DNA of 29,910 nt from a bacterium (GTDB taxonomy: Bacteria; Hydrothermota; Tepidihabitantia; Tepidihabitantales; Tepidihabitantaceae). The notes under the pieces were generated by a model, which saw nothing but the letters and a program-made list of their open reading frames with translations, made no database searches and was not told the origin of the DNA. This document shows positions 5,037 to 27,228 of the stretch, in pieces (positions within the stretch are counted from its first letter, which is position 1; each line of letters begins with the position of its first letter). The position numbers were made by a program, and so were the translations under genes. Location: assembly GCA_046485285.1 (NCBI GenBank), contig JAWOHE010000060.1, positions 1 to 29,910 of the forward strand, read 5' to 3'.

Positions 5037-5252
5037 TCAGCAGGCTTCGCAGTGGATGACCTTGCCCGTTTCGGTTCCATTGCAGCCGGCATCCGGACAG
5101 GGACGCGTCACCGGATGGCCGGCAGGGTTCGGAGGCTCCCTGTGGTGATGAGAGCAGGCGGTGCAGGTATATTCGACGGTGACCGTGTCGAAATGTCCGC
5201 AGTTCGGGCAGGTGAGCAGGCCGTCACCGTTCGCGCTTGTGCCGTCTGGCAT
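5037..5252 (-). CDS. small Cys-rich putative Zn-binding protein (71 aa), paralog A
   Basis: AGGAGG RBS; 8 Cys in CPNC, CTAC, CPDAGC and CEAC; paralogous to 4775-5011. Confidence 0.78.
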   Translation of the reverse strand: MPDGTSANGDGLLTCPNCGHFDTVTVEYTCTACSHHHREPPNPAGHPVTRPCPDAGCNGTETGKVIHCEAC

Positions 5253-5417
5253 ACTACCTCCTCTTGTTACGGGCCCGTTACAGTCCGGGACTGACGGGCG
5301 GGTCCCGACCCGACGAGCCCAGACAACCGTACAATAGTGGTATCAGATCGTGGCCGTTTGTCAAGTCCGACTTTGCCCCGGAGCCGGTCTGGCCTCGGAG
5401 CGGCAGCGACGACGACA

Positions 5418-5446
5418 TTGACACGGGCGGAGACCGGCACTATCCT
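5418..5446 (+). promoter_or_regulatory. sigma70-type promoter for the bEBP gene
   Basis: TTGACA-N17-TATCCT, 12 nt before ATG 5459. Confidence 0.65.
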
Positions 5447-5458
5447 CGCTTGAACGAG

Positions 5459-8152
5459 ATGGCAGGACCAACGCCGGCAGAGAGCGTCGCCGCATTCCTG
5501 GGCAGGCTGGCCGACATGGCCGACACCGGGTTGCGGCTGACGGCGATGTTCGAGTTCACCGATGACCTCTGGCTGAAGCACCCGGCCGAGGCGCGGGGTG
5601 TCCTCGAGCGGCTCCTCGAGGAGGCCGAAGGTTCGGGCGACGTCGGAATGGTCGCCCGGTCGGCGAACCGCCTCGCGGAGATATGCCGGCTGAACGGCGA
5701 GCTCGACCGGGCGGACCGGCTCGCCCGGCAGGCCCGCGACGCAGGACAGGCAACGGGAGAGCACTGCCACGAAGCCGCCGCCTGGAACACAACCGGGCTC
5801 ATCCACTACGACCGGGCCGAGTACGCCCAGGCACAGGCGTGCTATGAGCGGTGCCTCGATCTCAGCCGGACCGCGGGATACGCGGAGGGCGAGCTTGCGG
5901 CGCTCAACCAGCTCGGGATACTGATGGGATTCCAGGGTCGAATTGCCGAGGCATTGGACTGCTATGAGCGCTGCCTGGTGATCGACGTCGAGCGTGGCTC
6001 GCGCTACGGGGAGGTCGTCAGTCGGATCAACGTCGGCTGGATGCTCGAGCAGCTTGGTCGCTGGGAGGACGCGGCCGAGCATTTCTACCGCGCGATCGCA
6101 ATCAGCGAGCAGGAGGGGTTCGATGACTGGCGCCTGACCGCGTCCTGCAACCTCGGCGAACTCTTCTTCAAGCGCCGGCGCCTGGAACAGGCGACCGCGC
6201 TCTTCAACTCGGTCATCAAGGTCGAGCGGCGGCGCGACCAGCCGCGGGCGATGCTCGGCATCGCGCTGACTCATCTCGGGCAGGCGGTGGCGGCGAATGG
6301 CGATTACGGCGCGGCCGCGGCCAGCTACGCCGAGGCGGTGAGGATCTTCGAGTCCTGCTCGAACCTGTATGATCTCGTCCGCGTGCTGTGGATGAGCGCC
6401 GAGCTGGCACTCGACACAGGCCGACTGGCGGACGCGGATGAGCTCATCGGGCGTGCTGCCGGGCTCGCTGCCGAGCAGAAGCTCCGGCGCGAGCTGGGCG
6501 AGGTGCTGAGGGTACGCGGCCTGCTGTTTGCCGAGCGAGGCGACGGCGAAACGGCCAAGGACTGCTTTGAGCGCGCGATCGGCGAGCTGGCCGAGACCCC
6601 GGAGAGCTACGAGATGGCCCGGGTCTGTCTTCAGTTCGGACGCTGTCTCATCCGGGGCGGCGAAGTGGTCCGGGCGCGGGCACTGCTGAGGCAGGCGGCC
6701 GGGACGTTCCGGCGGCTGTCGGTCGTCGCCGAGTCCGAGCAGGCCAACCGCCTGCTGTTCGAGCTTGACGTGCCTGAGCGAGGCGAGCACGCGGTGCTGG
6801 CCGGGCTGCGTGGGCTCGAACGGGTCGGCCTTGAGCCGGCGGCCCTTATCAGCGAGGCTCTCCGGCTGGTTTGCGCCGGGCTCGGTTGTGCAGGCGGCGC
6901 GCTGGTCCACGATGGGCGGACCGTGCAGACACATGGTCGCGTAGATTCGCGGGCTGCGGGTCGGGCTGCCGCGGATCAGCAGGCGGGCGCGTCCACCCGG
7001 GCGCTGTGCCTGCCATTGGGCAAGCCCGGGTCGAGCTGGCTCTACTTCGAGTGGCCGAACCAGTCTGATATCACGGTCGGTTCGGAAACCCTGGCGGGCA
7101 TAGCCCGTTTGCTGGTCGAGCCGGCGCGGAGGCTGGTCGAGCTGCGGCCCGGGCCGGCGGCCGAGGAGCGATTCGCCGGGCTCGTGTACCAGGGCGTGAC
7201 CGGCCGCTGCGAATCGGTGCTCCAGACCCTGGAGGTCGTCGCGCGGATAGCCCGAACGCCGATGCCGGTCTTTGTGAGGGGCGAGAGCGGCACCGGTAAG
7301 GAGCTGATTGCCCGGGCCATTCACGACTCAAGCGACCGCCGCGCCGGGCCCTTCATGGCGGTCAACTGCGCGGCGGTGCCCGAGGGGCTGCTCGAGGCCG
7401 AATTCTTCGGCGTGACCAAGGGCGCTGCGACCGGCGTCGCCGCACGGCGCGGCAAGTTCGAGCAGGCGAACCGCGGCACCGTCTTCCTCGACGAGATCGG
7501 CGACATGAGCGTTGGCCTTCAGGCCAAGCTCCTCCGGGTCCTCCAGGAAGGGGCGTTCGAGCCGGTCGGGGGCGGACGGACAATCAGCGTGGACGTGCGG
7601 GTCGTCGCCGCCACCAATCAGCCAGTGGATCAGCTCATCCACGACGGACGGTTTCGGGCCGACCTGTACTACCGGCTCAACGCGGTGGAAATCGTGTTGC
7701 CGCCGCTCAGGGAGCGTCGCGAGGACATCCCGGAGTTCGTTCGGCACTTCATCAAGCGGGGCAACCAGGAGTTCGGACGCGACATCCAGGGAGTTGAAGA
7801 CGAAGTCCTGGACCTGATGCTGGCGTATGACTGGCCGGGCAACATCCGGGAGCTTCAGCACGTGGTCGAGCGGGCGGTCATACTCGCGCGGGAATTCCTG
7901 CTCAGGGCCGACGACCTGCCGCCGCAGCTTCGTCCGGCAGTCCCGGCCGGTAAGTCAGACGCGAAGGGGCGCATCCGCGAGTTCCGGAAGGTCGCCCGGG
8001 CAAAGGGAGCGGCCGACACCGAGAAGGCGCTACTCCTGGACTGCCTCGAAAAGACCGACTGGAATGTCAGCGCTGCGGCCCGGAAGGCAGGATACAGCCG
8101 GGCCCAGTTCTACCGACTGATGACAGAGCACAGGCTCACGCGTCCTGACTAG
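5459..8152 (+). CDS. sigma54-interacting transcriptional regulator (bEBP): N-terminal TPR repeats, AAA+ domain, Fis-type HTH
   Basis: Walker A GESGTGKE, AVNCAA, GAFTGA-position variant GAATGV, Walker B FLDEIG, RFRADLYYRL, WPGNIREL, C-terminal NVSAAARKAGYSRAQFYR; about 430 aa of TPR-like helices. Start set at ATG 5459 downstream of the promoter. Confidence 0.93.
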   Translation: MAGPTPAESVAAFLGRLADMADTGLRLTAMFEFTDDLWLKHPAEARGVLERLLEEAEGSGDVGMVARSANRLAEICRLNGELDRADRLARQARDAGQATGEHCHEAAAWNTTGLIHYDRAEYAQAQACYERCLDLSRTAGYAEGELAALNQLGILMGFQGRIAEALDCYERCLVIDVERGSRYGEVVSRINVGWMLEQLGRWEDAAEHFYRAIAISEQEGFDDWRLTASCNLGELFFKRRRLEQATALFNSVIKVERRRDQPRAMLGIALTHLGQAVAANGDYGAAAASYAEAVRIFESCSNLYDLVRVLWMSAELALDTGRLADADELIGRAAGLAAEQKLRRELGEVLRVRGLLFAERGDGETAKDCFERAIGELAETPESYEMARVCLQFGRCLIRGGEVVRARALLRQAAGTFRRLSVVAESEQANRLLFELDVPERGEHAVLAGLRGLERVGLEPAALISEALRLVCAGLGCAGGALVHDGRTVQTHGRVDSRAAGRAAADQQAGASTRALCLPLGKPGSSWLYFEWPNQSDITVGSETLAGIARLLVEPARRLVELRPGPAAEERFAGLVYQGVTGRCESVLQTLEVVARIARTPMPVFVRGESGTGKELIARAIHDSSDRRAGPFMAVNCAAVPEGLLEAEFFGVTKGAATGVAARRGKFEQANRGTVFLDEIGDMSVGLQAKLLRVLQEGAFEPVGGGRTISVDVRVVAATNQPVDQLIHDGRFRADLYYRLNAVEIVLPPLRERREDIPEFVRHFIKRGNQEFGRDIQGVEDEVLDLMLAYDWPGNIRELQHVVERAVILAREFLLRADDLPPQLRPAVPAGKSDAKGRIREFRKVARAKGAADTEKALLLDCLEKTDWNVSAAARKAGYSRAQFYRLMTEHRLTRPD

Positions 8153-8687: not shown

Positions 8688-11600
8688 TCAGCGGGCGAGC
8701 ACGACGCGTTCGGAGACCGTACTGCCGGCTGTCGAAATCCGCAGAAGGTAGACGCCCGCCGGCAGGCCTGTCGGACGCCAGTCGATGCGACCCCCAGCCG
8801 GGACCGGCCCGTCGTGGATGCGCGCGACGAGGCGGCCTGAGGCGTCCCAGGCGTCGACCCTCACCGGCCCCACGACGGCCGGCCCGAGCGAGATGGTCAG
8901 GAGCCTGCCAAAAGGACTGGGGCCGATGCTGTGGCGGGCCGGCGCGGCAGTCAGCGTTCCCTCACTGACGCCGACGTTCAGGTCATACCAGCGCTGGGCG
9001 TCCTCGCAGGCATCGAGGAACCCGGTCGAGTCCGGTGCGGCGAGGAACGCGAATGCGACGCGCTGGCGCTCGCCGGGCACGAGGTCGAATGAGCCGGTGG
9101 CGACCGCGACCGACCAGTTGTGGACCCGGTCGGGCTCGACCGTACCGAGTTCGCCCCTGAGGAGACGATACTTCATCTCTTCGCTGAGCCCGGAGTCAGG
9201 GTAGACGTAGCGGTCGTGTTCGAACGCTACAAACCTGCCGGGAAGGTCCGGGTGAAGCAGCCTGACACCGGCGAAAATGCTGGCCGGGTTGATGCTCCGC
9301 ATCGCCGCGGCCCGGTCGGCCGGGAAGACGCGGGCAAGGTCGTGGAAGCGGTCGGTGGCGCGGATGTCGAAGTCGGCGAAGATGCCGGTGCGGGCACCGC
9401 CAAGCGGCGAGGAGCCGTCGTTGATGATGTCGTAGACAAGCACGACGAACCGGGCGGCCTCGCCCTCGTCCGTGCCGAGCGCCCGCTCGACGACACGGAT
9501 GCCGCTAGCGCGGGGATGGCCGGCGTCGGTGAACGCGCCACGGATGACCTGGCGGCCCGTCCAGCGCGGTGCCTCGGAGTAGAGGCTTTCGCGCATCACC
9601 CAGTCGCGGTCGAGGTCGAGCGCCGACAGGTTGTAGAACCGGTCGGCGACATAGTCGGCGGAGTTGCCGAGAACGAAGCTCGCGATGTTGAGACAGCTCG
9701 TGTCATCCTTCGGGAACCGGAAGCCGCGGCCTCGCCTGGAGTCGGCGTTGTCGAAGCCGAGGTTGCCGCGTGCGGTCAGGGTCAGCGCGCAGGCGCCGGT
9801 GTCGACCTCGGCCGCGACCCGGCCCGGGTGGCCGACCGGGATGGTGAAGCAGAAGTCCCAGGTCCAACTGCCGGAGGTGGCGATTGCATAGAGCTCGACC
9901 CGGCTGCCGGGGCGGATGTCGGGCGCTGCGCGGACTGCGAGGTCCGACGTTGCCGCGCTGTCGCCGGCACCGACCAGACCAAGCTCGGCGGTTGAGTCGG
10001 TCGCGGAGAGGCCTGGCGACAGGGCCCGGATCAGGACCCTGGCGTCCGGGGCATCGGCCCGGCCCAGGTTGCGGACCACCAGGGTCAGCGCGCCGTTCTC
10101 GCCCGGCTCGAGGATGCCGTTCTCACGGGGCTGGCCGGCGTCACTGACCTGGGCGCTGGCGTAGACGAGCAGGGGTTCCGGCTCGCCCTCGGTCACCCGG
10201 GCGGTGCAGGCCTCGGCGAGGAAGTCGTGCGCCGAGGCGGTGATTACCAGCCGGCCGGTCGTGACCGGGTGGACGACGAGCGGAGCCTCACCCGACGAGT
10301 TGGTGCGGGCGGTGGCGTGAACTTCGTTGTCCTTCCAGGCACAGACGAACGCGCCGCCGACCGGGCCGTCGAGGTCGCTGACCCGGGCCGTGATGATGCC
10401 GGCGCCGGTCGGCAGGACTGAGTCTGCGCTGACCGCAAGCGGGCGCGGCGGTGTGGTCCAGAGGTCGATCGCCGGGTCGCCGAAGAGGTTGAACTCGGTC
10501 ATGCACCAGCGCCAGAGCTGGTCATAGCGCGCGGCGCCGGCATAGACCTCAAGGCCGCGGGCGTGGGCGACGCCGAGGACATTCTCGCCTTCGATGAGCC
10601 ACTGGTCGTAGAACCGGATGCAGAGCTTCTCGGAGGGACCCATCGCGGGCGGCGTGCCCCAGCCGTAGCGCGAGTTCATCATCACCGCGATGGTGCCGCC
10701 ATCCGGGCAGTTGTGGGAGATCTCGGCGATGCAGTCCTCGGCCTCGAAGTTACCCGGCGTGCAGGCGAGCGAGGTCATGATGCTGAACTTGCGGCTGTTG
10801 GTCTGGCGGCCGGCGTAGCTCGAGGTGTAGATGGCCGGGCCGGTCTCGTCGTAGACGCCGCCCTCGTTGCCGTGGCCGGCCGCGTCGAAGACCGCGTAGC
10901 CGCGGTTGAAGGAGTCGGCGACGACCGCGGCCGAGGCAGGGTTGACCAACTGGGCGTTGGTCCAGCCGTTGGGCAGTAGGTTGATGATCGAGTCGTGGAC
11001 GAAGCGGCCGTGGTAGCCGATGCTGTGCCAGAGCCAGCCGGACGGAAAGAGACCGCGCCGGATGTAGTCGGGCGCGGGGTCGTTCTCGTACGCGAAGACC
11101 TTGGCGATGAAGTTGGCAACCTGGGTTTCGTTGTCGACCGAGGCCCGACCGACGATGACGTCCGAGTAGAAGTCGACCGAGTCGGCCGGCTCGCCGAAGA
11201 TGTTGTTGTTGTTTGAGTCCCAGGAGTGGTCGAGGTCGGCGTAGTAGAGGTCGGTCGGAATGTCGCCGACCTCGCTGCCGACCCGGGCCCGGATCCGGCG
11301 GCAGGGCACGACCGCGTTGTCGCCGGCGAGCAGGACGTAGGACAGGCCCCGGTTCTCGTAGTAGTCGCGGATGAGGTTGCGGGTCTGCTCCTGGAGGTCG
11401 CGGCCCGGGTAGCGACCGCTGACCCACTCGACCGTACGGACCTCCGCGCGCAGACCGCGGGCGGTGCGGTACTCGACGAACGGCCGGAACGCCTCGGCGA
11501 AGCGGTCGCCGGTGATGACAAGGTAGTTGATCTCGGGCAGGTCGCGCCCGGCCGCGGGCGGGGACCAGGATTCGAGCCAATCCGGGTTCGCAACGAGCGC

Positions 11601-12170
11601 GCGCAGGCCGTCAGCCGCACGCTCGCGCTGAGACGGCGAGAGCGCCGGCGCGGGCGCGGCCGCGTCCCACTGCACCGAGATGCGCAGGCCGCGGTTGAGG
11701 GTCAGCCGGCCGTCGGCCGGACGCCAGGAGAGCGGCGCGGCGAGGACCGACACGAGCTGGAACCCGGAAGCCCGGCCCGCGCGCCAGTCGGCGAGCGGCG
11801 CGGCCGGCCAGTCAGCCGCGGATTCGTAGACCGACGGGTCGGGCGGCACCGGCGCCGGTTGCGCGCGGCCTGACAGCGGGCGGGGCTCCTCGATCGGGGC
11901 GATGCGCCAGCGGCCATCGACCGGCCCGGCGTCGAGCACCTCGACCTCGACCGAGGTGACGCGGGCGTCGGCCGGGATGACGAGCGTCACCGGTACGACC
12001 GGCAGGGAGGGCAGGCCGGGCGCGTCGATGACGATGCCCCGGGCCAGTTCCACGACGTCCCAGCCGCCGGCCCGGCTGAACCGGAGCTCGGCCGGGCTGA
12101 ACGAGACGTCGTGGGAGTAACTACCGGCGAGAAGGACTGCCGGGAGCAGGGTCAGCAGGATGCGCGACAT
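8688..12170 (-). CDS. C25 (gingipain-like) cysteine peptidase with propeptide and T9SS-type C-terminal domain
   Basis: Signal peptide; C25 propeptide (PGLPSLPV); YVLLAGD, TDLYYADLD, VGRA, catalytic AGHG and LACTPGNF, EFNLFGDP; tail DASGRLVA...LPAGVYLLRI. The second ATG (12170) fits the GGAG RBS best. Confidence 0.92.
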   Translation of the reverse strand: MSRILLTLLPAVLLAGSYSHDVSFSPAELRFSRAGGWDVVELARGIVIDAPGLPSLPVVPVTLVIPADARVTSVEVEVLDAGPVDGRWRIAPIEEPRPLSGRAQPAPVPPDPSVYESAADWPAAPLADWRAGRASGFQLVSVLAAPLSWRPADGRLTLNRGLRISVQWDAAAPAPALSPSQRERAADGLRALVANPDWLESWSPPAAGRDLPEINYLVITGDRFAEAFRPFVEYRTARGLRAEVRTVEWVSGRYPGRDLQEQTRNLIRDYYENRGLSYVLLAGDNAVVPCRRIRARVGSEVGDIPTDLYYADLDHSWDSNNNNIFGEPADSVDFYSDVIVGRASVDNETQVANFIAKVFAYENDPAPDYIRRGLFPSGWLWHSIGYHGRFVHDSIINLLPNGWTNAQLVNPASAAVVADSFNRGYAVFDAAGHGNEGGVYDETGPAIYTSSYAGRQTNSRKFSIMTSLACTPGNFEAEDCIAEISHNCPDGGTIAVMMNSRYGWGTPPAMGPSEKLCIRFYDQWLIEGENVLGVAHARGLEVYAGAARYDQLWRWCMTEFNLFGDPAIDLWTTPPRPLAVSADSVLPTGAGIITARVSDLDGPVGGAFVCAWKDNEVHATARTNSSGEAPLVVHPVTTGRLVITASAHDFLAEACTARVTEGEPEPLLVYASAQVSDAGQPRENGILEPGENGALTLVVRNLGRADAPDARVLIRALSPGLSATDSTAELGLVGAGDSAATSDLAVRAAPDIRPGSRVELYAIATSGSWTWDFCFTIPVGHPGRVAAEVDTGACALTLTARGNLGFDNADSRRGRGFRFPKDDTSCLNIASFVLGNSADYVADRFYNLSALDLDRDWVMRESLYSEAPRWTGRQVIRGAFTDAGHPRASGIRVVERALGTDEGEAARFVVLVYDIINDGSSPLGGARTGIFADFDIRATDRFHDLARVFPADRAAAMRSINPASIFAGVRLLHPDLPGRFVAFEHDRYVYPDSGLSEEMKYRLLRGELGTVEPDRVHNWSVAVATGSFDLVPGERQRVAFAFLAAPDSTGFLDACEDAQRWYDLNVGVSEGTLTAAPARHSIGPSPFGRLLTISLGPAVVGPVRVDAWDASGRLVARIHDGPVPAGGRIDWRPTGLPAGVYLLRISTAGSTVSERVVLAR

Positions 12171-12179
12171 CAACATCTC

Positions 12180-14762
12180 CTAGTCAACAACTATCGCCTT
12201 GGCGGTCAGTTCGCAGTCCGGCCCGGACAGGCGCAGGAAGTAGACCCCGCGGCTGGTTCTCTCCGCCCGCCACTCCACCGAGTGGTCGCCGGGCGCGAGG
12301 AACATCCCATCCGCCAGCTCCGCGACCAGCCGGCCGGCGCGGTCGTAGACCGCGAGTCGGACCGGCCCGGCCCGTCGGAGCGCGAAGCGCACTTCGGTCC
12401 GTCCGCGGACCGGGTTCGCGTCGAGCGCGAGCGCGGGGAGCGGCCGCCTGCCGGCGGCAGGCTCGGTGACCGCGGTCGGATCGAGAGTGGTGTACTTGAC
12501 CGCCCGACCTGCCTCACGGGGCGCGGCGGCCGGGGCGTGGCGGCCGTCGAACAGCTCCTCGATGGCGATGGCACGGATCGGGTCCTGGATGCCCATCGTC
12601 GAGCTCGCGGAGCGGTTGGCGGTCTGGTACTGGAAGACAACGACGTTGTCGCCGGTCGGGGTCGCGGCAGTCGTGTCGTAGATGATGACCTGAAACTTGT
12701 CGCGGACGCTCGAGGGGCTGTAGTAGGCAACCGAATCGTACTGGACGATGAAGCGGTGGTTCTCCTCGTCGTGGTACCAGTAGACGTAGCCCTGGCTGTT
12801 GTAGCCGGGGTAGAGGTCGTCCCAGTTCGGACAGAGCATCCCGGGCGGGTTCTGGGGGTCGGGCAGGCGCCGGTTGGCATAGTGGCGCTGGGAGTAGACC
12901 CCGGGGCATATCCAGCCGTCGGCCGAGACCGAGAGCCGGGTGTAGTCGGTCCCATAGAAGCGGAACGGGCCAAACGAGGGCGGCAGGTCGACGCCGATGA
13001 CGTCGTCGTTCTGAGGGTAGTCGATGCGCGTGCCGAGGCCGCGGATCTCGACCCAGTCATACACCGGAGCCTGGGCGTAGGCGCTGTCGATGTTGTCGTA
13101 GGCCCAGTAGCGCGCGGGCGTGCGCGGGCCGTCGGGCATCGGGTCGGTCACGAGGTACGGCCCGACGGTGAGGCTGAAGCCGGCGGCCCAACTCGACTCA
13201 GCCGCGCTGATGGCAAGGTCGAACCGGGCGACGTGCCCGCGGGGAGCGTCAGGCCGGGCCCAGACCAGGAACGGGATAGCGTTTGTGGCCGTGTCCTGGC
13301 CGGCGATGTCGCCGTAGGCGGCGTGGGCACGGGTGACGACCGCGAAGCTGTCCTCGGTCGAGACGAGTGCCTGGACTGCGTGGGCGTCGGCCATGCCGTA
13401 GTTGCGCAGGGTCAGGTAGACCTCGGCGGTCTCGGCCGCGTCCCAGCGGCCGTCGTTGTTGCCCCGGATGTCGCTCAGCCGCCAGCCGAGCAGCCCGACG
13501 AGCGGCCGGTCGAGCGGCACCGGGCCGCCGAGCAGGGCGATGGCGGCTACGCCGGCCCGCGTCACCTCGGTGCAGAAGCCGTTGTCGTTGTAGCCGGCAC
13601 CGATCGAGTCGTGCGAGGTGTGGTAGTGCGGGTTCGTCGGCCAGAAGTCCTCGATGCCGGTCAGCGCGAGGTAGCCCCGGTTCCAGAACCCGCCGTGGTC
13701 GGAGTTCTGGTTGTCGGACATCATCTGCTTATTGGTCGGCAGGGTGGTGTAGGTGTCGGCGACCGCGATGAACCAGTCGCAGAATGGCTCGCAGGCCGGG
13801 TTGGCGATCTTGGCCATCAGGTCGAGGTCCTCGGGCGTATTGTCGGCGTAACCGATCATGTCGAAGTTGATGACGCCGAGGATCGAATCGCCCCGGGCCC
13901 GGGCGGTGTCGGCATACCACTTGCTGCCATAGAGGCCGAACTCCTCGCCGGTCCAGGCGATGAACTTGAGGTCGTGAGTGAACCGGTAGCCCTGAGTGAC
14001 GCGGCAGGCCTCGACCGCGGCGGCGGTACCGGAGGCGTTGTCGTCCGCTCCTGGCGCGTTGGCGGCGGCGTAGCTGTCGATGTGGCCGCAGATGATCGCG
14101 TAGGGATTGCGTTGGCCGGAGGCGCCGTAGCGGACGCCGATGACGTTTGGGGCGTGGCCCGGGCGATGGGACTGGAGGATGACCGTGTCACAACCCCAGG
14201 CGCGGAAGCGGTTTGCGACCCAATCGCAGGCGGCGCGGCAGGAGTCGCCGGTCGAGTAGCGGTTGCGAAACTCCTGGAGCCGGCGGACGTAGCTGAGGAC
14301 CGACTCGGGTTCGACGGCCGCTACCATCGCCTGGACGAGCGGGTTCGGGCTCACCGGCGGAAGGTCGTAGGCGGGCTCGAGAACCGTCCAGCCGGAGAGG
14401 TCCACGGGCCCGACCATTGCCCGCAGCCCGGTAAGGCGCAGGTGGCCGGGCTCGTCGAGCAGGACGAGGTACTCCTCGCCATCGAACTCGAGGACGGTGC
14501 CAGCCTCAAACAGCGCGGCGCGGGCGGACTCGTCGAGCGGGTAGACACGGAACAGCCGCTCGGCGACGGGCGCGCGGTCGAGCACGCGTCCGCCGGCGGC
14601 GGTCAGCTCGCCCTCCGACCCGACCACCAACAGGCCAGTCCGGAGCGCGCCGACGACGCGGAAGGCGGGGACGAGGTCGGCAGGTCGAGCGTCTGGGACG
14701 ATACCGAGCACGTCGCCGGCGACGGCCACGCTCAGACAGGCAAGACACAAGAACAGGCGCAA
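12180..14762 (-). CDS. M28 family metallopeptidase with T9SS-type C-terminal domain
   Basis: ICGHIDS, PGADDNASG, WTGEEFGLYGS, NFDMIGY, SDH, YHTSHD motifs; tail YDRAGRLVA...RGVYFLRL. TTG start at 14762 behind AGGAGG (the track gives GTG 14792). Confidence 0.92.
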   Translation of the reverse strand: MRLFLCLACLSVAVAGDVLGIVPDARPADLVPAFRVVGALRTGLLVVGSEGELTAAGGRVLDRAPVAERLFRVYPLDESARAALFEAGTVLEFDGEEYLVLLDEPGHLRLTGLRAMVGPVDLSGWTVLEPAYDLPPVSPNPLVQAMVAAVEPESVLSYVRRLQEFRNRYSTGDSCRAACDWVANRFRAWGCDTVILQSHRPGHAPNVIGVRYGASGQRNPYAIICGHIDSYAAANAPGADDNASGTAAAVEACRVTQGYRFTHDLKFIAWTGEEFGLYGSKWYADTARARGDSILGVINFDMIGYADNTPEDLDLMAKIANPACEPFCDWFIAVADTYTTLPTNKQMMSDNQNSDHGGFWNRGYLALTGIEDFWPTNPHYHTSHDSIGAGYNDNGFCTEVTRAGVAAIALLGGPVPLDRPLVGLLGWRLSDIRGNNDGRWDAAETAEVYLTLRNYGMADAHAVQALVSTEDSFAVVTRAHAAYGDIAGQDTATNAIPFLVWARPDAPRGHVARFDLAISAAESSWAAGFSLTVGPYLVTDPMPDGPRTPARYWAYDNIDSAYAQAPVYDWVEIRGLGTRIDYPQNDDVIGVDLPPSFGPFRFYGTDYTRLSVSADGWICPGVYSQRHYANRRLPDPQNPPGMLCPNWDDLYPGYNSQGYVYWYHDEENHRFIVQYDSVAYYSPSSVRDKFQVIIYDTTAATPTGDNVVVFQYQTANRSASSTMGIQDPIRAIAIEELFDGRHAPAAAPREAGRAVKYTTLDPTAVTEPAAGRRPLPALALDANPVRGRTEVRFALRRAGPVRLAVYDRAGRLVAELADGMFLAPGDHSVEWRAERTSRGVYFLRLSGPDCELTAKAIVVD

Positions 14763-14829
14763 GACTCCTCCTGAGAGGTTGACGGAATACACTTGCCAAA
14801 GTCAGGTCGCTCAGCGACCCTTAGCGGAT

Positions 14830-19292: not shown

Positions 19293-21293
19293 CTACTCGA
19301 TGACCAGCTTCTGTGACACCGACCTGCCGCCGACCGAAAGCCGGCAGAAGTAGATGCCGTTCGCGACCCGGCCGCCCCGCTCGTCGGCGAGGTTCCAGGT
19401 CGCGGTACTGACACCGGTTTCGGCCGGGCCGTCGAACAGCGACCGCACCAGCCGGCCGTTCGCGTCGTAGATTCCAACGTTCAGCCGGCCTGCGTGCGCC
19501 GCGGCCCAACTGAGGCTGACCTGCCGCCGTGCCGGGTTCGGCCCGGTCTCGAGCTTGACACTCAGCGCCGGCTGGAACGGGTCGAACTCCTCGACACCGA
19601 CCTCGCCGGCCACGTAGTGCAGGGCGTTCCGGATGACCAGCGCCCAGTCGCCGTTGCGATTCGGGTCGGCGTAGATTCCCGGGTACTGGTTCACGCCGAC
19701 GACCTTGCGGTTCGAGCTGACTGCGACATACGGCCGGCCGTCGTTCCAGCGCGCGACCGAGTCGGAGCTGATGAAGGCTGCGCCGGCGGCCAGCCACTCG
19801 CCGACCGCGCCGACGCCCGACATTATCGGGTGGCCGGCGTTGTGCCAGCCCATCGTCGTCGAATTGGTGACGTTGCCCCCGACCCCGATCGTTGCATAGT
19901 CGCCGGTCGTGACCCGGCCGGCCAATGCCCAGCCCGTGACGAAGCTGGCGTTGGCGACGACTACGCCGCCACCAGCATCAACGTAGTCGGCAAGCACGTT
20001 GCCGAGTGCGGACGGGTCGGCGTAGGTGTAGTTCGAGTGCACGCCGACCACGCTGTAGGGCAGGAGGTCCGGCAGTGGCGGCGTCGAGTATCGCACGTCG
20101 AGGTAGGTCAGCGTGTCGCCCAGCGCCATCAGCCGGACACCGAGCGTGGTGTCGGGCGGGCCGTAATCGGAGTAGAGCCACAGGGCCCGGAAATCAGCGG
20201 CGGAAGGCTCGATCGCGCCGCGCTCGACGCTGTTTAGAAAGCCTGAGCCGGTGTAGCCGCAGACCGCGAGGAGGGTGTCACGGTAGATTGCTCCGGCGTG
20301 GGAGCGGCGGGCGGCCTGGAGGTTGTTGCAGGCCTCCCAAGTCCCGGTTGAGACGGTGTAGGACCACGCCTGGTTGGTGACCGCCCCGGAGGCGTTGTAG
20401 CCGCCGAAGACGTAGATGACCCAACCGTGGGCCGGGTCGTTGTAGGCCGCGCCGTTGCCCCAGCTCATCCCGAAGGGCATTGCCGGGCCGGTGGTCCAGT
20501 TGTTCCCGGAGATCGAGTACTTGAGGAAGTTGGGCGTGCCGATATAGGGCAAGCCGGAGGCGGTCTGGCCGCCGATGAGGTAGATGGTATCGCCGATCGC
20601 GGCCGCAACCTGGCTTCTCAGCGCCAGCGGCATATCGGTCAGCGCGGTGAAGGTGTTGGCGGCCGGGTCATAGCGCCAGGCCTTGTTGAACGTCGCGGAC
20701 GCGGTGGCGCCACCGAACATGTAGGCGTTGCCGCCCGACGCGGCCATCGCGTAGTACATCAGGCCGGCCTGGGGCAGGACCGCGCCGGCGGTCCAGGTGT
20801 TGGCGCTGAGGTTCAGCTTCGTCATGTTGTCGTACTGGTCGCCGGCCGAGGTGTAGCCGCCGCCGACGCAGATCAGCGTGTCCGAGACCGCGACCGCGTT
20901 CGCGTTCGAGACGCCGCCGCCCGGGTGGCTCAGTCCCTCGCTCCAGGTGCCCGTTGCGAAGTCGAATATCTGGTCCGGGACGCGGTTGGGCGCGGGCGAG
21001 ACCTCTCCGGTCACGACGTGGAGTTTGCTGCCGACCACGACCGCGGCAAGGCGCGAGATGGACTTGGGGCACGGGGTCCCATAGGTCCAGGTCACGTTGC
21101 CGGCGTCGGTGTACGGCGACTCGCCGACCGGGCACGCGCCGGCGCCGAAGTCGCTGTGCGGGTTGATCACCTCGACCGCCGGCGCGGCGAGCACTGGCTC
21201 GACCTGTTCGCCGCCGGTGGCGGTTCGCGGCCCGGCGAAGACGACTGCGGCCGCGCAGAGCGCGACCAGCAGTCCGATTACGGTCCTGTTCAT
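19293..21293 (-). CDS. secreted Kelch-repeat protein with FlgD-Ig/T9SS-type C-terminal domain
   Basis: Signal peptide; Kelch GG motifs (AYMFGG, IYLIGG, IYVFGG) with W-terminated blades; tail IYDANGRLVRSL...WNLADERGGRVANGIYFCRL; AAGGAG RBS. Confidence 0.88.
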   Translation of the reverse strand: MNRTVIGLLVALCAAAVVFAGPRTATGGEQVEPVLAAPAVEVINPHSDFGAGACPVGESPYTDAGNVTWTYGTPCPKSISRLAAVVVGSKLHVVTGEVSPAPNRVPDQIFDFATGTWSEGLSHPGGGVSNANAVAVSDTLICVGGGYTSAGDQYDNMTKLNLSANTWTAGAVLPQAGLMYYAMAASGGNAYMFGGATASATFNKAWRYDPAANTFTALTDMPLALRSQVAAAIGDTIYLIGGQTASGLPYIGTPNFLKYSISGNNWTTGPAMPFGMSWGNGAAYNDPAHGWVIYVFGGYNASGAVTNQAWSYTVSTGTWEACNNLQAARRSHAGAIYRDTLLAVCGYTGSGFLNSVERGAIEPSAADFRALWLYSDYGPPDTTLGVRLMALGDTLTYLDVRYSTPPLPDLLPYSVVGVHSNYTYADPSALGNVLADYVDAGGGVVVANASFVTGWALAGRVTTGDYATIGVGGNVTNSTTMGWHNAGHPIMSGVGAVGEWLAAGAAFISSDSVARWNDGRPYVAVSSNRKVVGVNQYPGIYADPNRNGDWALVIRNALHYVAGEVGVEEFDPFQPALSVKLETGPNPARRQVSLSWAAAHAGRLNVGIYDANGRLVRSLFDGPAETGVSTATWNLADERGGRVANGIYFCRLSVGGRSVSQKLVIE

Positions 21294-21509
21294 CGTGTTC
21301 TCCTTGTTCGTTGCTGCGGGTCCGATTCGGACTTGCCCGGCGCCGCACTGGCGGCTGGCACCGAGTTCAGTGACGGACGGATGTTCGGGCTGGTTCGCTT
21401 CTCACCTCCCTGATGGTCGACATTGGCTTCCCCGGCCGGGCCTGCCGGGCATTCCGGGGTGCGGGAGCGGGCCGCGGACGCCTCCCGCACCATCATCACT
21501 CATTGCGGC

Positions 21510-21537
21510 AGTATAGCACCGGTGGCCATCGCGTCAA
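21510..21537 (-). promoter_or_regulatory. sigma70-type promoter (extended -10), about 210 nt upstream of the Kelch ATG
   Basis: TTGACG-N16-TATACT with TGC before the -10. Confidence 0.65.
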
Positions 21538-21589
21538 TATCCAAGCAGGCAACGGTCCGATCTCCGGCGTCGGGGCAAGGCCCGACTGG

Positions 21590-23419
21590 CTACTCGACGA
21601 CCAGCTTCCGCGTGTGGGTTGCCTCGCCGGCCCGGACCCTCAGCAGGAACACTCCTCGCGCAGGAGGCGCGAGAGCAAGGCCGCCGGCTCGCCCCGGAGT
21701 CTCGGTCCGGTAGCGGATGCGGCCTGATGCGTCAATCAACTCAACCGTGACTGCGCGAGTGCCGGGCAGGTTCCAGGTCAGGCTGGTCCGGCCACGACAG
21801 GGGTTCGGTGCAAGTACTATCCCCGGCGCGGGGCTGTTCGGCTCAGCCGTGATGCCCGCCCCGGTGGGGAGCAGGACCAGCTTGCCATAGAACGCGGGCT
21901 CACGCCAGAGCGAGTCAGCCAGGTTGCCGGGCCACCAGCCACAGGGGAGAGAGTCGTCCGCCATCACCAGCCAGAGCCCGAGCGTGTCGCCGGTCGGCCG
22001 GGCGGCGAGCTGGTAGGGCAGGTCCCCGAAGGGTATCCGGCCCTCGATGACGGTGGTGCCGCCGAGGCTGCTGATTGCGACCGTGTCGCCCGGAATGGGA
22101 AGGCCCGCCGGGTCCCAGGTGTCGGCGCGGCACCAGCAGTAGACCGCCTCGTCGCTGCCATCCGCTGAAACCCGGAGGAAATAGCCGCCCTCGGAACGGT
22201 CGGTCGACCAGGTCCCGTCGTTGTTCGCGTCGAAGAACAGCCCGACCATGTCGCCGGGCGCGCGGCCGGCGGAGCGGGGCAGTTCGGCCGCGAAGTAGAG
22301 GTAGCTGGCGTCGTGGCAGAACCACGCCCGCGCCGACCCGACCGGTCGGGGACCGCATCGCCAGCCGTTGAGGTTGGAGAGGTCGCGCGCGGCGTAGGCC
22401 GAGTCCCATTCGCCCGCGGTGAGCAGGCCGTCGAACCCCGGGACCGAGCTGACACGATAGGACCGGAGCGTGTCGGTCGAGGCAAGCAGGGCCATGCGGC
22501 AAGTGTCGTTCCCAGGGTTCTCGTCGTCAGCAAGGCGGGTCAAGACAACGAGGGTGGCGTGGTTCCACAGGCCGGTGACGTACGTGCCTTCGGGGAACCG
22601 GACGGTCGTGCTGTCGCCCGGCGCAATCGTGACCTGGCGCGTGTCCTGCCAGACAGGCGTGCCGGCGGAGTCAAGCCAGCTGAGCGTGACCGGGCAGGTG
22701 GCGGCAATGGTGCCGAGGTTGGTCACCCGGCAGGCAGGGTCCAGCCGCGCTCCGGAGCGGACCATCGAGCCGGCCGGGCTGGTGAACGGGCCGGCAGCGA
22801 AGTCACGGTCAACGGACCGGAGCGAGATGTCGTCGGCGAAGACCTTCGCCAGCGGCGTCCCTCAACCGTCGAAGGTGTAGCTGTAGAGCGCGACCTCGAT
22901 CCGGGCGATGTCGGCCGGGCTTACGCCGGGGAGGTTATCGGCGATCTCGCGGGCGATGTCGAGCCGGTACTCGCTCCAGGCCGGGTCGGCGACCCGGACC
23001 AGGCTCAGGGTCGGGGTTGGTTGCCAAGTGGCATAGGTGGAGTAGACGTAGCGCGTTTCGCCGAGCTCCGTGCCGTTGCGGTTCTGGTAGCTGACGCTGA
23101 AGCAGGCCGCCGGCCAGCAGGTTGACGTGCCGCCGCTGTGTTCGAAGCTGGCCCAGAAGGTGAGGGTCAGCGCCGGGCTGGCAACGTCGACGGTCTGTCC
23201 AAGCCGACACCAGCCCGGGTTGTCGTACTGGTAGGCCATCGCCTCGTAGTCCGGGTCCGGGTGGTAGTGCACCGCCCGGTTGCTGGTGTGCGTCCCTGCG
23301 CCGCCCTCGGTGTGTACCCAGCCGGTACCCAGCGGCTGTTCGAAACTGCCATTGACCAGCAACTCGGCACCCGCGGACAGGCCACAGGCGATGATGACAG
23401 ACAGGATTGACTTCAGCAT
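21590..23419 (-). CDS. candidate selenoprotein (609 aa, Sec at codon 186): CBM-like N-domain, CARDB-like and CBM9/DOMON-like domains, T9SS-type tail
   Basis: Track ORFs 22862-23419 and 21590-22765 share one frame, separated only by TGA 22862-22864 (YSYTFDG*GTPLAKVFADD). SECIS-like hairpin 11 nt downstream. The signal peptide is in part 1 and the sorting tail (APNP...IDASGR...RGVFLLRV) in part 2. Confidence 0.8.
22835..22850 (-). promoter_or_regulatory. putative bacterial SECIS element
   Basis: TGA-N11-GGCGAA[GGTC]TTCGCC. Confidence 0.75.
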
Positions 23420-23448
23420 TCGCGCCTCCGTTTAGGTTGCTCCCCAGC

Positions 23449-23476
23449 AGTATAGGCTCCGGCGCACGGCGGTCAA
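23449..23476 (-). promoter_or_regulatory. sigma70-type promoter
   Basis: TTGACC-N16-TATACT upstream of GGAGG and ATG 23419. Confidence 0.65.
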
Positions 23477-23504
23477 CAAGGTGACCGCGGCAGTGCCGGC
23501 CGAC

Positions 23505-24404
23505 TCAGCGGGTGAGGACGAGCGGCCGGGTTTCGAGCCGGCCGGGAATCGCGAGCACGCACTGGTAGACCCCGGCCGGCAGGCCCGCCGGGTCGAGCGC
23601 GAAGCGGTGCGGCCCGGATGCCAGGGTGCCATTGGCAAGCCGTCTGACCGTGCGGCCGGCGGCGTCGATTACGCTGAGGCTGACCGGGACGGGGTGCGGG
23701 AGCTCGAAGCTCACCGTGCTGCGACCGGCGGACGGGCTGGGCGCGACGGAGAAGGCGCGGGCCAGTCCTGACCCGGGGCTCTCGTTGATTGCCGAAACCC
23801 GGGCGAGCACGAAGTCGTCGGCGGAGACCTCCGCCCACGGCTGGGTTCAGCCGTCGGATGTGAAGCCGTACATCAACACTCGGACCTGGTGGACATCCGC
23901 GGCAATGACTCCCGGGAGGTTGCCGCTGAGTTCCGCGCCGATTGACAGCCGGTACTCGCGCCAGTCCGGGTCGGTGACCTCGATGAGGTGCAGTATCGGC
24001 GTGCTGGTCCAGTTGCTGTTGCCGTCGCGCAGGCAGAACAGGGTGGTGCCGAGTATGTCGCCACCGGCGTCGCAGTACTCGAGGCCGACTGAGGCGACCG
24101 GCCAGCAGGTGACCGAGCTGTTGCCGATGCGGAACTCGGCCTGGAAGGAGAACTCGAGCCCGGTGTCCGGGACGGTGACGAGCTGGCCGAGCTTCATCCA
24201 GCCCGGGCCGCCGTACTGGTAGACGCGGGCCTCGTAGTCGGCATCGGGGTGATAGTCCGCGGCCCGGCTGAAGACCTGGTTGCCGTAGCCGTCGCGGGCC
24301 TGGGTCCAGCCGACCGACAGGTCCTGTTCGAAGTCGCCGTTGACGAGCAGGCTCTGACCCGGGAGCAGGCCAAGGACAAGGGTGAGGGCAAGGGCAATTC
24401 TCAT
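23505..24404 (-). CDS. candidate selenoprotein (299 aa, Sec at codon 186): CBM-like N-domain and T9SS-type tail
   Basis: Track ORFs 23847-24485 and 23505-23810 share one frame, separated only by TGA 23847-23849 (YGFTSDG*TQPWAEVSADD). Start ATG 24404 behind GAGG. Tail IDAAGRTVRRL...LPAGVYQCVL. Paralog of 21590-23419. Confidence 0.8.
23820..23835 (-). promoter_or_regulatory. putative bacterial SECIS element
   Basis: TGA-N11-GGCGGA[GGTC]TCCGCC, extendable by an imperfect lower stem AGCCGT/ACGACT. Confidence 0.75.
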
Positions 24405-24457
24405 TGTCATCCTCTGCGGCACATCGGGAAGCACCGCTACTTCGCGTTCACAGTACA

Positions 24458-24530
24458 ATTCTACGCGACGGGTCTGGGCAGTCAATCGCGGCCCCGGTGC
24501 TGTTGACAGGCGCGGGGCGCGGCCTAGTCT
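24458..24530. promoter_or_regulatory. back-to-back divergent sigma70-type promoters
   Basis: Minus: TTGACT(24480-85)-N16-TAGAAT(24458-63). Plus: TTGACA(24503-08)-N16-TAGTCT(24525-30). Confidence 0.6.
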
Positions 24531-24546
24531 TGTGAATTATCCTCAG

Positions 24547-25692
24547 ATGATTGCGCTCCTCCTGCTTCTTGCACTTGCCGGCCCGGTCGTGCCGACCGGG
24601 CTCGAAGCGGCCGACACGCCCAACGATGAGGGCGGGAGCATTCGGCTGAACTGGTGCTGGCCGGAGGCGGAGTCGGCCCGGGCGCAGGCGTTCGTCGTCC
24701 AGCGCTCGACCGCCCCGGACTCCGGGTTCGAGGCAGTCGGCGAGGAACCGGGCACCGGCCGTGATTTCGTCGATGCCGGCGCGCCGGATGGCGTCGAGCA
24801 CTGGTACCGGGTCGGAGCCGCGACCGCAACCGACACGGCCTGGAGTGCGATTGCCGGCCCGACCCGCGCTTCGGCGCAGTGGTTCAACGCGGCGCGGGCC
24901 AACGTCCTCGTGATACTCGTGGTGATATCGGCCGTGTTCGGCTACTACATTGCCCGGGCGCGGCGGGGCGTGAAGATGCACATCCGGCGCATCGCCGGGC
25001 TCGACGCGATTGACGAGGCGCTCGGCCGGGCGACCGAGATGGGCAAGCCGATCCTGTTCAGCTTCGGGCTCGGCTACATCACCGACATGGTCGTCATCGC
25101 CGCCCTGCCGCTGCTGCGCCGGGTCGCCGGCCGTTCGGCCGAGTACGCGACGCGGCTCCTCGTGCCGAACTCCGACCCGCTGGTGATGACCGCGGCGCAG
25201 GAGACGGTCCGGGAGGCGTACGTCCAGGCCGGCCGGCCGGACCTGTACAGCGCCGACAACGTCAATTTCCTGACCTCGGACCAGTTCGGCTACGCGGCCG
25301 GGGTTGACGGCCTGATAATGCGCGAGAAGCCGGGCGCGATATTCTGGCTCGGCTACTTCTACGCCGAGTCGCTGATAATGGCCGAGACCGGCCACTCGGT
25401 CGGCGCGATCCAGCTCGCGGGCACGACCGAGACGACCCAGTTGCCGTTCTTCGTCGCGGCCTGCGACTACACGATGATCGGGGAGGAGATCTACGCCGCG
25501 TCCTGCTACCTGAAGCCCGAGCCGATGATGCTCGGGAGCATCAAGGGCGAGGACTTCCTCAAGCTCGCGCTCATCGTCGTCGCGACACTGACGGTGCTCG
25601 TCGGCACCGCGGCGGCGCTGCTGGGTGACCGGGCCGGGTTCCTCGCGACCGCGTTCCGGACCGCGGCCGGCTGGTTTGCGCTCAACTACTAG
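24547..25692 (+). CDS. fibronectin type III + DUF6754-like membrane protein
   Basis: Signal peptide; FN3-like PTGLEAADTPNDEGGSIRLNW...YRV; TM; then IRRIAGLDAIDEALGRATEMGKPI...FYAESLIMAETG...QLPFFVAACDYTMIGEEIYAAS (DUF6754-like, recalled not searched). Confidence 0.8.
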   Translation: MIALLLLLALAGPVVPTGLEAADTPNDEGGSIRLNWCWPEAESARAQAFVVQRSTAPDSGFEAVGEEPGTGRDFVDAGAPDGVEHWYRVGAATATDTAWSAIAGPTRASAQWFNAARANVLVILVVISAVFGYYIARARRGVKMHIRRIAGLDAIDEALGRATEMGKPILFSFGLGYITDMVVIAALPLLRRVAGRSAEYATRLLVPNSDPLVMTAAQETVREAYVQAGRPDLYSADNVNFLTSDQFGYAAGVDGLIMREKPGAIFWLGYFYAESLIMAETGHSVGAIQLAGTTETTQLPFFVAACDYTMIGEEIYAASCYLKPEPMMLGSIKGEDFLKLALIVVATLTVLVGTAAALLGDRAGFLATAFRTAAGWFALNY

Positions 25693-25695
25693 CCG

Positions 25696-26397
25696 ATGCT
25701 CAAGCGCACCGTCCCGCTCGTCATCGTCTTCGTGACCGCGGCCGCGCTGATCGTCGCGTTCTTCATTCCCCACCGGCCGTTCGGCGACCTCGAGGCGCGG
25801 ATGCTCAACTGGTACGCGATCGTCGCCGGCTTCACTTTCCTGCTCGGCCTCGACTCGCTGGCGCGGCACCACTTCACGAAGGTTGTCCGCCGCGCGAAGG
25901 GCTGGTTCTACTCGGTCGTCCTGCTGGCCGGGCTGTTCCTGACGCTCGGGCTGGGGCTGTACTCGTGGTTCCGGTTCCAGAGCCCGTTCGCGCTCCAGTC
26001 GCCGTTCATGTGGCTCTACACCTACATGATCATCCCGCTCCAGGCGACGATGTTCGGGACGCTGGCGTTCTTTATCGTCTCGGCGGCCTACCGGGCGTTC
26101 CGGGTCCGCAACTTCGGCGCGACGCTCCTGCTCATCGCGGCCGGGCTGGTGATGCTCGGCAACACGCCGCTGGGCGGGACGGTCTGGCGTGGCGTCGCCC
26201 AGCTTGCGCACCTCGTCGTGCCGGCGGTGGACGCCGGCCGGCTGGGCGCGCTCGAACTGCCGGCGGTGGTCAAGGACTGGCTGATGGCGGTGCCGCAGGC
26301 CGCGGCCAGCCGCGGCATCGGCATCGGGCTGGCGCTGGGCGGGATGGCGATGTCGCTGCGGATTATCCTCGGCATCGAGCGGACCTACCTCAACTAG
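25696..26397 (+). CDS. uncharacterised multi-pass membrane protein (DUF6754 cluster)
   Basis: About 6 hydrophobic segments; PLQATMFGTLAFFIVSAAYRAFRVRN; C-terminal LRIILGIERTYL; tight operon spacing. Confidence 0.85.
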   Translation: MLKRTVPLVIVFVTAAALIVAFFIPHRPFGDLEARMLNWYAIVAGFTFLLGLDSLARHHFTKVVRRAKGWFYSVVLLAGLFLTLGLGLYSWFRFQSPFALQSPFMWLYTYMIIPLQATMFGTLAFFIVSAAYRAFRVRNFGATLLLIAAGLVMLGNTPLGGTVWRGVAQLAHLVVPAVDAGRLGALELPAVVKDWLMAVPQAAASRGIGIGLALGGMAMSLRIILGIERTYLN

Positions 26398-26400
26398 CCG

Positions 26401-27228
26401 ATGGGTCTCTGGGCGCGGGTCGCGGGCGTTGACCGGCGGGTCCTGTACCTGCTGCTGGCGCTGGCGGTGGCGGTACCGCTACTCGTGCGGCCGAAGGCGG
26501 ATATCCGGGTGTCCGAGCCGGTGCGCGACGCGTTCGCGGCGGTTGACCGGCTGCCGGCCGGGTCGGTGGTGATGATATCGATCGACTTCGACCCGTCCTC
26601 GGCGCCCGAGCTCCAGCCGATGCTCGTCGCGATCCTGCGCCACTCGTTCCGGAAGGGGCTCAGGGTCATCGTCACCGGCCAGCTCGCGCTCGGCCTGCCG
26701 ATGGCGGAGATTGCGCTCAACCAGGTCGCGCCCGAGCTGGGCGCCGAGTACGGCCGGGACTACGTCAACATCGGCTACCGGCCGGGGTACAGCGCGCTGA
26801 TGGTCGGCATCGGCAGGGAAATCCGGGACTTCTTCCGGACCGACTACCGGGGCGTACCGGTTGACAGCTTCGAGTTCATGAGGTCGGTGCACAGCTACCG
26901 CGACATCGCGCTTCTCGTGACGCTCGCCCACGGCGCGGTGGCCGACGCCTGGATTCAGTTCGTCGGCGGTCGGTTCGACCAGCGGATAGTCGCCGGCGTG
27001 ACCGGGGTGAACGCGCCGAACATGTATCCCTACCTGCAGGCTGGGCAGATTGCCGGGCTCATCGGCGGCCTGCAGGGCGCGGCCGAGTACGAGCGGCTCA
27101 TCGAGCAGCCGGGCTCGGCAACGCTCGGGATGCCGGCGCAGGCCTGGGCGCACGGGCTCATCATCATCCTGCTCATCATCGGCAACCTCGGCTACCTGCT
27201 CTCGCGCCGGCGCGGGGAGAAGCGGTGA
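26401..27228 (+). CDS. uncharacterised membrane-anchored protein (DUF6754 cluster)
   Basis: N- and C-terminal TM; YGRDYVNIGYRPG and YPYLQAGQIAGLIGGLQGAAEYE motifs. Confidence 0.85.
   Translation: MGLWARVAGVDRRVLYLLLALAVAVPLLVRPKADIRVSEPVRDAFAAVDRLPAGSVVMISIDFDPSSAPELQPMLVAILRHSFRKGLRVIVTGQLALGLPMAEIALNQVAPELGAEYGRDYVNIGYRPGYSALMVGIGREIRDFFRTDYRGVPVDSFEFMRSVHSYRDIALLVTLAHGAVADAWIQFVGGRFDQRIVAGVTGVNAPNMYPYLQAGQIAGLIGGLQGAAEYERLIEQPGSATLGMPAQAWAHGLIIILLIIGNLGYLLSRRRGEKR

Follow-up and report, generated by a model that had tools for sequence, protein, structure and literature searches.

In two adjacent genes of a Hydrothermota bacterium, an in-frame UGA codon is followed at close range by a small RNA hairpin, which raises the question of whether these hairpins are selenocysteine insertion sequence (SECIS) elements and the UGA codons are read as selenocysteine (Sec). 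The genes lie in a 29,910-nt stretch of DNA, referred to here as the window (positions 1 to 29,910 of contig JAWOHE010000060.1, assembly GCA_046485285.1; our contig C44), from a member of the Tepidihabitantaceae (Tepidihabitantia; Tepidihabitantales) whose genome assembly is 2.34 Mb at 69% G+C. We consider it highly probable that the two hairpins are bacterial SECIS elements situated inside the coding regions of secreted jelly-roll proteins, and the stop codons within both genes are almost certainly read as Sec. A preliminary description of the locus, made from the DNA letters alone, had already proposed a SECIS role, and the hairpin indeed proved to be conserved, covarying and co-distributed with the Sec machinery.

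Both motifs were present where that description had placed them and are read on the minus strand, which it had left unsaid. Gene A (21590..23419, minus strand) has 609 codons in a frame that remains open through a TGA at 22862..22864 (codon 186; context YTFDG-U-GTPLAKVFADD) and closes with TAG. An 11-nt spacer (22861-22851) leads from the UGA to the hairpin GGCGAA-GGUC-UUCGCC (22835..22850), which consists of GGCGAA (22850-22845), the loop GGTC (22844-22841), and TTCGCC (22840-22835), and codes for (L)AKVFA, where the last beta strand begins. In order, the product contains a signal-peptide-like N-terminus, a jelly-roll domain resembling carbohydrate-binding modules (CBMs) and carrying the Sec (P0003; 22799..23371, with Cys85 in a TCWP motif and Sec170), a middle region with no family match, and a type IX secretion system (T9SS) type A C-terminal sorting domain (21596..21811, residues 537-608; TIGR04183, E 1.1e-7, 31.7 bits with a cut-off of 23; PF18962 was below its cut-off). 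Gene B (23505..24410, minus strand; 301 codons from an ATG at 24410, a start codon picked by eye) has its in-frame UGA at 23847..23849 (context FTSDG-U-TQPWAEVSADD), followed by an 11-nt spacer (23846-23836) and the hairpin GGCGGA-GGUC-UCCGCC (23820..23835; GGCGGA at 23835-23830, GGTC at 23829-23826, and TCCGCC at 23825-23820), which codes for (W)AEVSA. Its product has a signal-peptide-like N-terminus, a jelly-roll domain with Sec, and a tail of FlgD-Ig-like or T9SS sorting type (23559..23726; PF13860, E 2e-6; FlgD_ig 28.1 bits with a cut-off of 27), and the gene ends at a second, ordinary TGA (23507-23505). As candidate T9SS cargo, gene A scored over the TIGR04183 cut-off and gene B under it (16.5 bits).

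Genes A and B are tandem paralogs (40% identity over 265 residues, E 1e-52). The sequences of their 11-nt spacers are unrelated, and their stems differ solely at the fifth pair, which is A-U in gene A and G-C in gene B as the codons AAG/TTC (K, F) become GAG/TCC (E, S). The preliminary description was thus correct in calling this a compensatory, non-synonymous change (AKVFA vs. AEVSA). The part of both genes downstream of the TGA codes for the final strand of the N-terminal domain as well as for the sorting-type tail.

A tblastn search found six paralogs of this family in the genome, and all six have TGA at the homologous site together with the hairpin; the spacer is 11 nt in four of them and 14 nt in two. 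We then considered a set of 41 genomes, made up of 40 relatives and the source genome, of which 36 had family matches, with up to eight UGA copies in one relative. In these 36 genomes, 91 of 93 homologous sites carry an in-frame TGA and the hairpin, the two exceptions being TGC (L071) and GAG (L092). The loop is GGUC at 89 of the 91 sites and AGUU at the other two (L041 and L062), and its second and third positions (G and U) are invariant in alignment A1. Spacers are 11 nt at 49 sites, 14 nt at 33, and 17 nt at 9, and one further locus outside the 91 sites has a spacer of 20 nt. Hence, the constant 11-nt length that had been claimed applies to genes A and B and fails in the family, and the proposed genome scan for TGA-N11-hairpin misses two of the six paralogs. 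A search with a peptide pattern that contained A[KE]V[FS]ADD returned 80 loci; as the pattern favors the hairpin, this set was excluded from the frequencies and used for variants and taxon labels. It added a GGCACA-GGUU-UGUGCC variant (encoding AQVCA), the 20-nt spacer, and an AGUU loop in L132. Its labels are candidate division WOR-3, with a few metagenome-assembled genomes (MAGs) of Eisenbacteria, Krumholzibacteriota, Thermoanaerobaculales, or Cloacimonadota. In a phylum-wide sample of 151 genomes, the family occurs in 36, and nearly all matches that span the site have exactly one TGA; the exceptions are one match without a stop and one partial match with TGA and TAA.

The combination of UGA and hairpin is also specific within the source genome. 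On both strands, 217 hairpins with 6 bp and a GGTC loop were counted, of which five have TGA at an 11-nt spacer, four of these being family paralogs; other offsets gave 0-6. Among the 826 TGAs that close coding-like open reading frames (ORFs) of at least 100 codons, a loosely defined hairpin follows 15, and 5 of the 15 are family members. Equal frequency after ordinary TGA stops, which the preliminary description had named as a refutation, was thus not seen. A covariance model of UGA plus the GGUC hairpin (model R1) scored the six paralogs at 42.5-56.7 bits (gene A, 54.2; gene B, 51.4), and the next match in the genome reached 23.4 bits. A transcription terminator was rejected as an explanation of the hairpins, as no U run follows them and the frame continues.

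The genome encodes the Sec machinery. ARAGORN found a tRNA-Sec with anticodon UCA (RF01852, 73.2 bits), and selB (357.5 bits), selA (537.7 bits), and selD (334.8 bits) all scored above curated cut-offs. Nine UGA-Sec genes were found, of which six belong to the jelly-roll family; selD itself has an in-frame TGA, at SCAG-U-ASK. Across the 41 genomes, selB is present in 39, and the two that lack it (G017 and G027) have neither selA nor the family. In the phylum sample, selB occurs in 47 genomes and the family in 36, with both in 35; 12 genomes have selB without the family, and 1 of 104 selB-less genomes (G158) has the family. These counts come from related genomes, which are not independent. G158 contains a C-terminal fragment of selB near a contig start and an N-terminal fragment of selA, and its exceptional status looks like an assembly gap. 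We also observed that G055, a genome of the same class, has two full-length selB matches over the cut-off (C15:4506-6383 and C17:75150-77036).

By analogy with the fdhF system of E. coli, the stem and GGUC loop on the mRNA would bind the C-terminal domain of a SelB carrying Sec-tRNA(Sec). SelB would thereby be brought to the ribosome as the UGA occupies the A site, Sec would be incorporated instead of a stop, and translation would proceed through the final beta strand to the T9SS sorting tail. SelB binding and Sec insertion are what we infer for genes A and B, as is the role of a Sec-Cys selenylsulfide considered below.

Could the UGA be decoded without the Sec system, in a process that the hairpin stimulates? 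A suppressor tRNA (Trp, Cys, or Gly) might do so, as might near-cognate read-through, or truncated and full-length products might both be made by design. In favor of this, W stands at the Sec site in the record of one database homolog, P0086, possibly as an artefact of the code applied by the gene caller. We regard such decoding as very improbable. The family is found only in genomes with selB and selA (as fragments in G158). Over the whole genome, ARAGORN detected no suppressor tRNA other than tRNA-Sec, leaving aside one tRNA (C59:16576-16670) of unassigned identity whose anticodon has four letters (tcct). Ordinary stops are most often TGA, which closes 826 coding-like ORFs compared with 760 for TAG and 89 for TAA, and a genome-wide reassignment of TGA (code 4 or 25) was rejected on this basis. 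A partner Cys accompanies nearly every Sec, an arrangement known from Sec/Cys redox motifs, and a product ending at the UGA would lose the last strand of its fold.

Other in-frame TGA candidates, from a composition scan of the genome, were judged by eye to be a stop followed by the next gene or unclear, and were set aside; examples are C68 'CPVG-TGA-LVED', C49 'LEGAG-TGA-GDAELF', and C48 'FCGS-TGA-GSS'. In the C68 case (minus strand, index 14309 of the reverse complement; 'NGDFTEWAGACPVG-TGA-LVED'), the TGA replaces the usual Trp of an NGDF-x-x-W...G-W motif, which is the start motif of jelly-roll domains, and composition is coding-like on both sides. The gene may be broken, the TGA may be an error, or this may be a further recoding site.

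The preliminary description had gone further and proposed that the GGUC hairpin is the SECIS of the lineage and could seed a search for its whole selenoproteome. In favor of a single lineage-wide element recoverable by a pattern scan, the hairpin has the loop and spacer of fdhF and covers six of the nine UGA-Sec genes found. That proposal did not hold, since selD and both thioredoxin-like genes use another element, with an AGUUG pentaloop. In selD, the UGA is followed by 17 nt and GGCGC-AGUUG-GCGCU. In the two thioredoxin-like Sec genes (FW-x-S-x-U-x-x-C; C7:24748-25299, plus strand, and C37:4157-4609, minus strand; loci L195-L217), 10 nt separate the UGA from GCGCGG-AGUUG-CCGCGC. In relatives, all 21 UGA-containing versions of the thioredoxin-like gene keep the form (Y)CGCGG-AGUU(G/A/U)-CCGCG(R), in which the outer pair covaries, G-C with U-A. 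In selB-less G017, this gene is a Cys form that has lost the hairpin; seven distant WCPPC forms are without it, and one Cys form is degenerate. The preliminary description had predicted that known selenoprotein genes would carry the GGUC hairpin and had named their use of a different element as evidence against its proposal, and selD and the thioredoxin-like genes do have a different element. Nor did the recommended covariance model serve as a seed, since model R1 retrieved the six paralogs and neither the selD nor the thioredoxin-like hairpins; moreover, the family spacer itself is 11, 14, 17, or 20 nt. The AGUU loop of three family members (L041, L062, and L132) resembles AGUUG, which favors a common element, yet we consider a single lineage-wide SECIS very unlikely.

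One genome, therefore, holds two SECIS types, a GGUC tetraloop and an AGUUG pentaloop. They share the genome and presumably the same SelB, and both have a G+C-rich stem of 5-6 bp that begins 10-17 nt past the UGA and a loop with G-U in its second and third positions; they differ in the loop, AGUU(G/A/U) vs. GGUC, and in stem sequence. While the AGUUG families have clear Cys forms without the hairpin, as in G017, Cys forms of the jelly-roll family are rare.

The hairpin overlaps a conserved protein strand, A-x-V-x-A-D-D, and might therefore simply result from conservation of the protein together with codon bias, without any function as RNA. At the protein level the strand is indeed conserved, x-[VL]-x-A-D-[DN] is present in non-Sec homologs too, and folding energies are unexceptional. 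The comparative data make this extremely unlikely. Across 83 distinct 32-nt segments, 99.0% of stem cells are paired vs. 89.4% in shuffles, none of 500 of which reached the observed value, and 18-63% in slid controls. Double-sided changes occur in four of the six pairs (63 cells). The pair formed by two codon third positions, that of Ala and that of the F/S/L codon, covaries and is never unpaired (GC 69, AU 10, CG 3, UA 1, unpaired 0). RNAalifold independently predicted the identical six pairs and none further. A tree was computed from the alignment upstream of the Sec loop, without the hairpin columns; on it, pairs change state at least 9, at least 8, and at least 3 times, and the residue pair at positions 2 and 4 of A-x-V-x-A changes at least 10 times. 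These two residues switch jointly, as K/F (AAG/TTC), E/S (GAG/TCC), R/L (AGG/CTC), and Q/C (CAG/TGT), tracking base complementarity rather than chemistry. The contention that pairing was kept at the cost of the protein thus extends from genes A and B to the whole family. Codon choice is equally constrained: the Val codon of the loop is GTC in 81 of 82 genes vs. 42% of the 1052 other Val codons of the same ORFs, and G is the last base of the K/E codon before it in 72 of 73 cases vs. 58% elsewhere. Both biases persist in ORFs of 31 to 69% G+C, that for GTC even in those of 31-33%. Finally, non-Sec homologs have strands incapable of forming the stem, for example AELWA, SELYA, AAWAYA, and AEVCV. 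Under the SECIS reading, the hairpin would be built from the last-strand codons A-[K/E/R/Q]-V-[F/S/L/C]-A, with the Ala and Val codons supplying the invariant stem bases and the loop, so that the exposed residues 2 and 4 would be forced to change together.

That the TGAs are true stops in split genes, pseudogenes, or misassemblies is scarcely credible: although public gene calls do end at the TGA (all 52 close relatives in a set of 5.8 billion proteins are 107-188 aa, none longer, and 133 of the best 150 among 429 cluster representatives matched by the family profile at E up to 0.001 end at profile position 171 or before), the same codon stands at the same site in nearly all homologs across 36 genomes, composition past the TGA is of coding type (third-position G+C in gene A is 0.93 upstream and 0.90 downstream), the alignment of the paralogs crosses the TGA, and the sorting tail required for secretion lies downstream of it.

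Among the closest known counterparts of the GGUC hairpin is the SECIS of E. coli fdhF, which the preliminary description had cited for a stem starting 11 nt after the UGA. The K-12 record confirmed this spacing and also showed the GGUC loop (UGA, 11 nt, GGUUGCA-GGUC-UGCACC). The two elements are alike in their position in the coding region right after the UGA, in the 11-nt spacer, and in the GGUC apical loop; a small apical loop with a conserved guanosine is described for bacterial SECIS elements in PMC1088965. They differ in that the sides of the fdhF stem are unequal, whereas genes A and B have a perfect 6-bp stem of unrelated sequence. Moreover, fdhF folds as a longer hairpin that includes the UGA, and no conserved lower stem is predicted for the family. 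The unequal sides of the fdhF stem presumably reflect a bulged U. This U, as well as the G and U of the loop, matters for SelB binding in fdhF. By analogy, the GGUC element would work like the fdhF SECIS but is a different element.

Several observations weigh against assigning a SECIS role to the hairpins. The hairpins of genes A and B and the family consensus are without the bulged U of the fdhF upper stem, and RNAalifold predicted no conserved lower stem. A search of Rfam with positions 21000-25000, at E up to 10, gave no relevant match. In a 56-nt segment, the folding energy of gene A was no better than that of shuffles (z -0.06), and gene B reached z -2.66, but with a minimum free energy (MFE) structure that uses other pairings. 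Thermodynamic folding by itself is thus not significant, although a 48-nt fold starting from the UGA gives the hairpin in five of six paralogs. Since folding energy is unremarkable, the case rests on comparison with other sequences. In one UGA form of the hairpin-biased set (L120), the closing pair is a U.U mismatch, and one Asp-form paralog of the thioredoxin-like gene keeps its hairpin. The sole Cys homolog among the relatives (L071, TGC) retains a hairpin, GACUC-GGUCA-GAGUC, 12 nt past the codon, and the hairpin is therefore not strictly limited to UGA forms; L071 may represent a recent change from Sec to Cys. This locus is on the minus strand of the relative's chromosome. The expectation that the hairpin would disappear from Cys homologs accordingly fails for L071, while other non-Sec strands, such as AELWA and AAWAYA, are unable to form the stem. 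We nonetheless retain the SECIS reading, under which the hairpin itself is an ordinary bacterial SECIS; the family that it marks is the more interesting result.

When the domain was read through the UGA, AlphaFold predicted an all-beta jelly roll (pLDDT 95.8) in which the last strand (residues 174-186) comes after Sec170. Foldseek matched CBM11, CBM16, CBM61, and tailspike CBM-like domains (TM 0.43-0.60, 9-17% identity, E down to 2.4e-7), and searches of Pfam and NCBIfam at E up to 0.1 gave no family for the domain, CBM4_9 included. The family shares its jelly-roll fold with CBM4/9-, CBM11-, CBM16-, and CBM61-type modules, and it has NG-F-E..GW N-terminal and ADD-x-L C-terminal signatures, motifs that we take to be linked to CBMs. 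None of the matched Foldseek entries carries a description as a selenoprotein.

A survey of 84 aligned domains, 82 of them with UGA, showed that cysteines are distributed in a complementary manner. Cys is present in the (S/T)-C-W-P strand of 46 domains, of which 43 have no Cys near Sec; it is absent from this strand in 36, of which 28 have C-U, C-U-x3-C, or U-x2-C. Eight domains have neither type of Cys. This distribution suggests that Sec and Cys may be joined in a selenylsulfide or may together make up a redox or metal site. In known secreted or periplasmic Sec/Cys selenoproteins (DsbA-like and AhpD-like), Sec likewise adjoins or faces a Cys (C-U, U-x-x-C), and a CXXU motif is mentioned for redox selenoproteins in PMC1088965. 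Those families have a thioredoxin fold, whereas the WOR-3 family is a jelly roll and T9SS cargo with few Cys forms. Indeed, Cys at the Sec position occurs in 1 of 93 sites in the relatives (L071). Among the best 150 database representatives, 17 reach profile positions 183-185, and of 14 long representatives that we examined, P0006 has Cys at the site and one corresponds to L071; in the remainder, the site is Ala, Glu, or Trp or falls in a loop that does not align.

The 52 close relatives in the large protein set are named 'hypothetical protein' or 'CBM-cenC domain-containing protein', the latter in one UniRef entry. Full-text literature searches gave no paper on selenoproteins of WOR-3 or on selenoproteins that are T9SS-sorted or CBM-like; a listing in supplementary tables is possible. 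The family is likewise not mentioned in the accessible portions of two reviews, of deep-Sep and BSepDB, or of a WOR-3 genome study. Published selenoprotein pipelines, as PMC1088965 and PMC12013277 describe them, require Cys homologs. The selenoprotein family marked by the hairpin appears to be new and undescribed.

Elsewhere in the window, many secreted-protein genes occur near genes A and B in positions 1-21293. On the minus strand, they code for a subtilase S8 (3-1808), a C25 gingipain-type peptidase of 1162 aa (8688-12176), an M28 peptidase (12180-14792), and a Kelch-repeat protein that carries a T9SS sorting tail (19293-21293). A TPR/sigma-54 activator is encoded at 5237-8152 on the plus strand. 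On the other side, a DUF6754 gene (24382-25692) precedes two ORFs at 25696-27228 that have third-position G+C of 0.97 and 0.93 and no Pfam family.

We tentatively propose, as a possibility that falls somewhat short of probable, that these proteins form a Sec-obligate family of surface or secreted selenoproteins and represent the main use of selenium in much of the WOR-3 phylum. In this proposal, a selenol and its partner Cys would be displayed on a lectin-like jelly roll outside the cell for redox, sulfur, or metal chemistry; Cys would be no substitute, the genes would be lost rather than converted when the Sec machinery is lost, and pipelines that require Cys forms would have missed them. Such a family is unusual in being extracellular, in having several copies per genome, and in having almost no Cys forms, and Cys-requiring pipelines would miss other families of this kind. 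Public databases contain hundreds of gene calls that are truncated at the UGA and carry the name "hypothetical protein", and these could be re-annotated as full-length, T9SS-sorted selenoproteins. The presence of GGUC and AGUUG types in one genome bears on the models used in SECIS searches. Furthermore, the family offers a natural example of RNA shaping protein, with coupled residue switches and covariation at wobble positions without exception.

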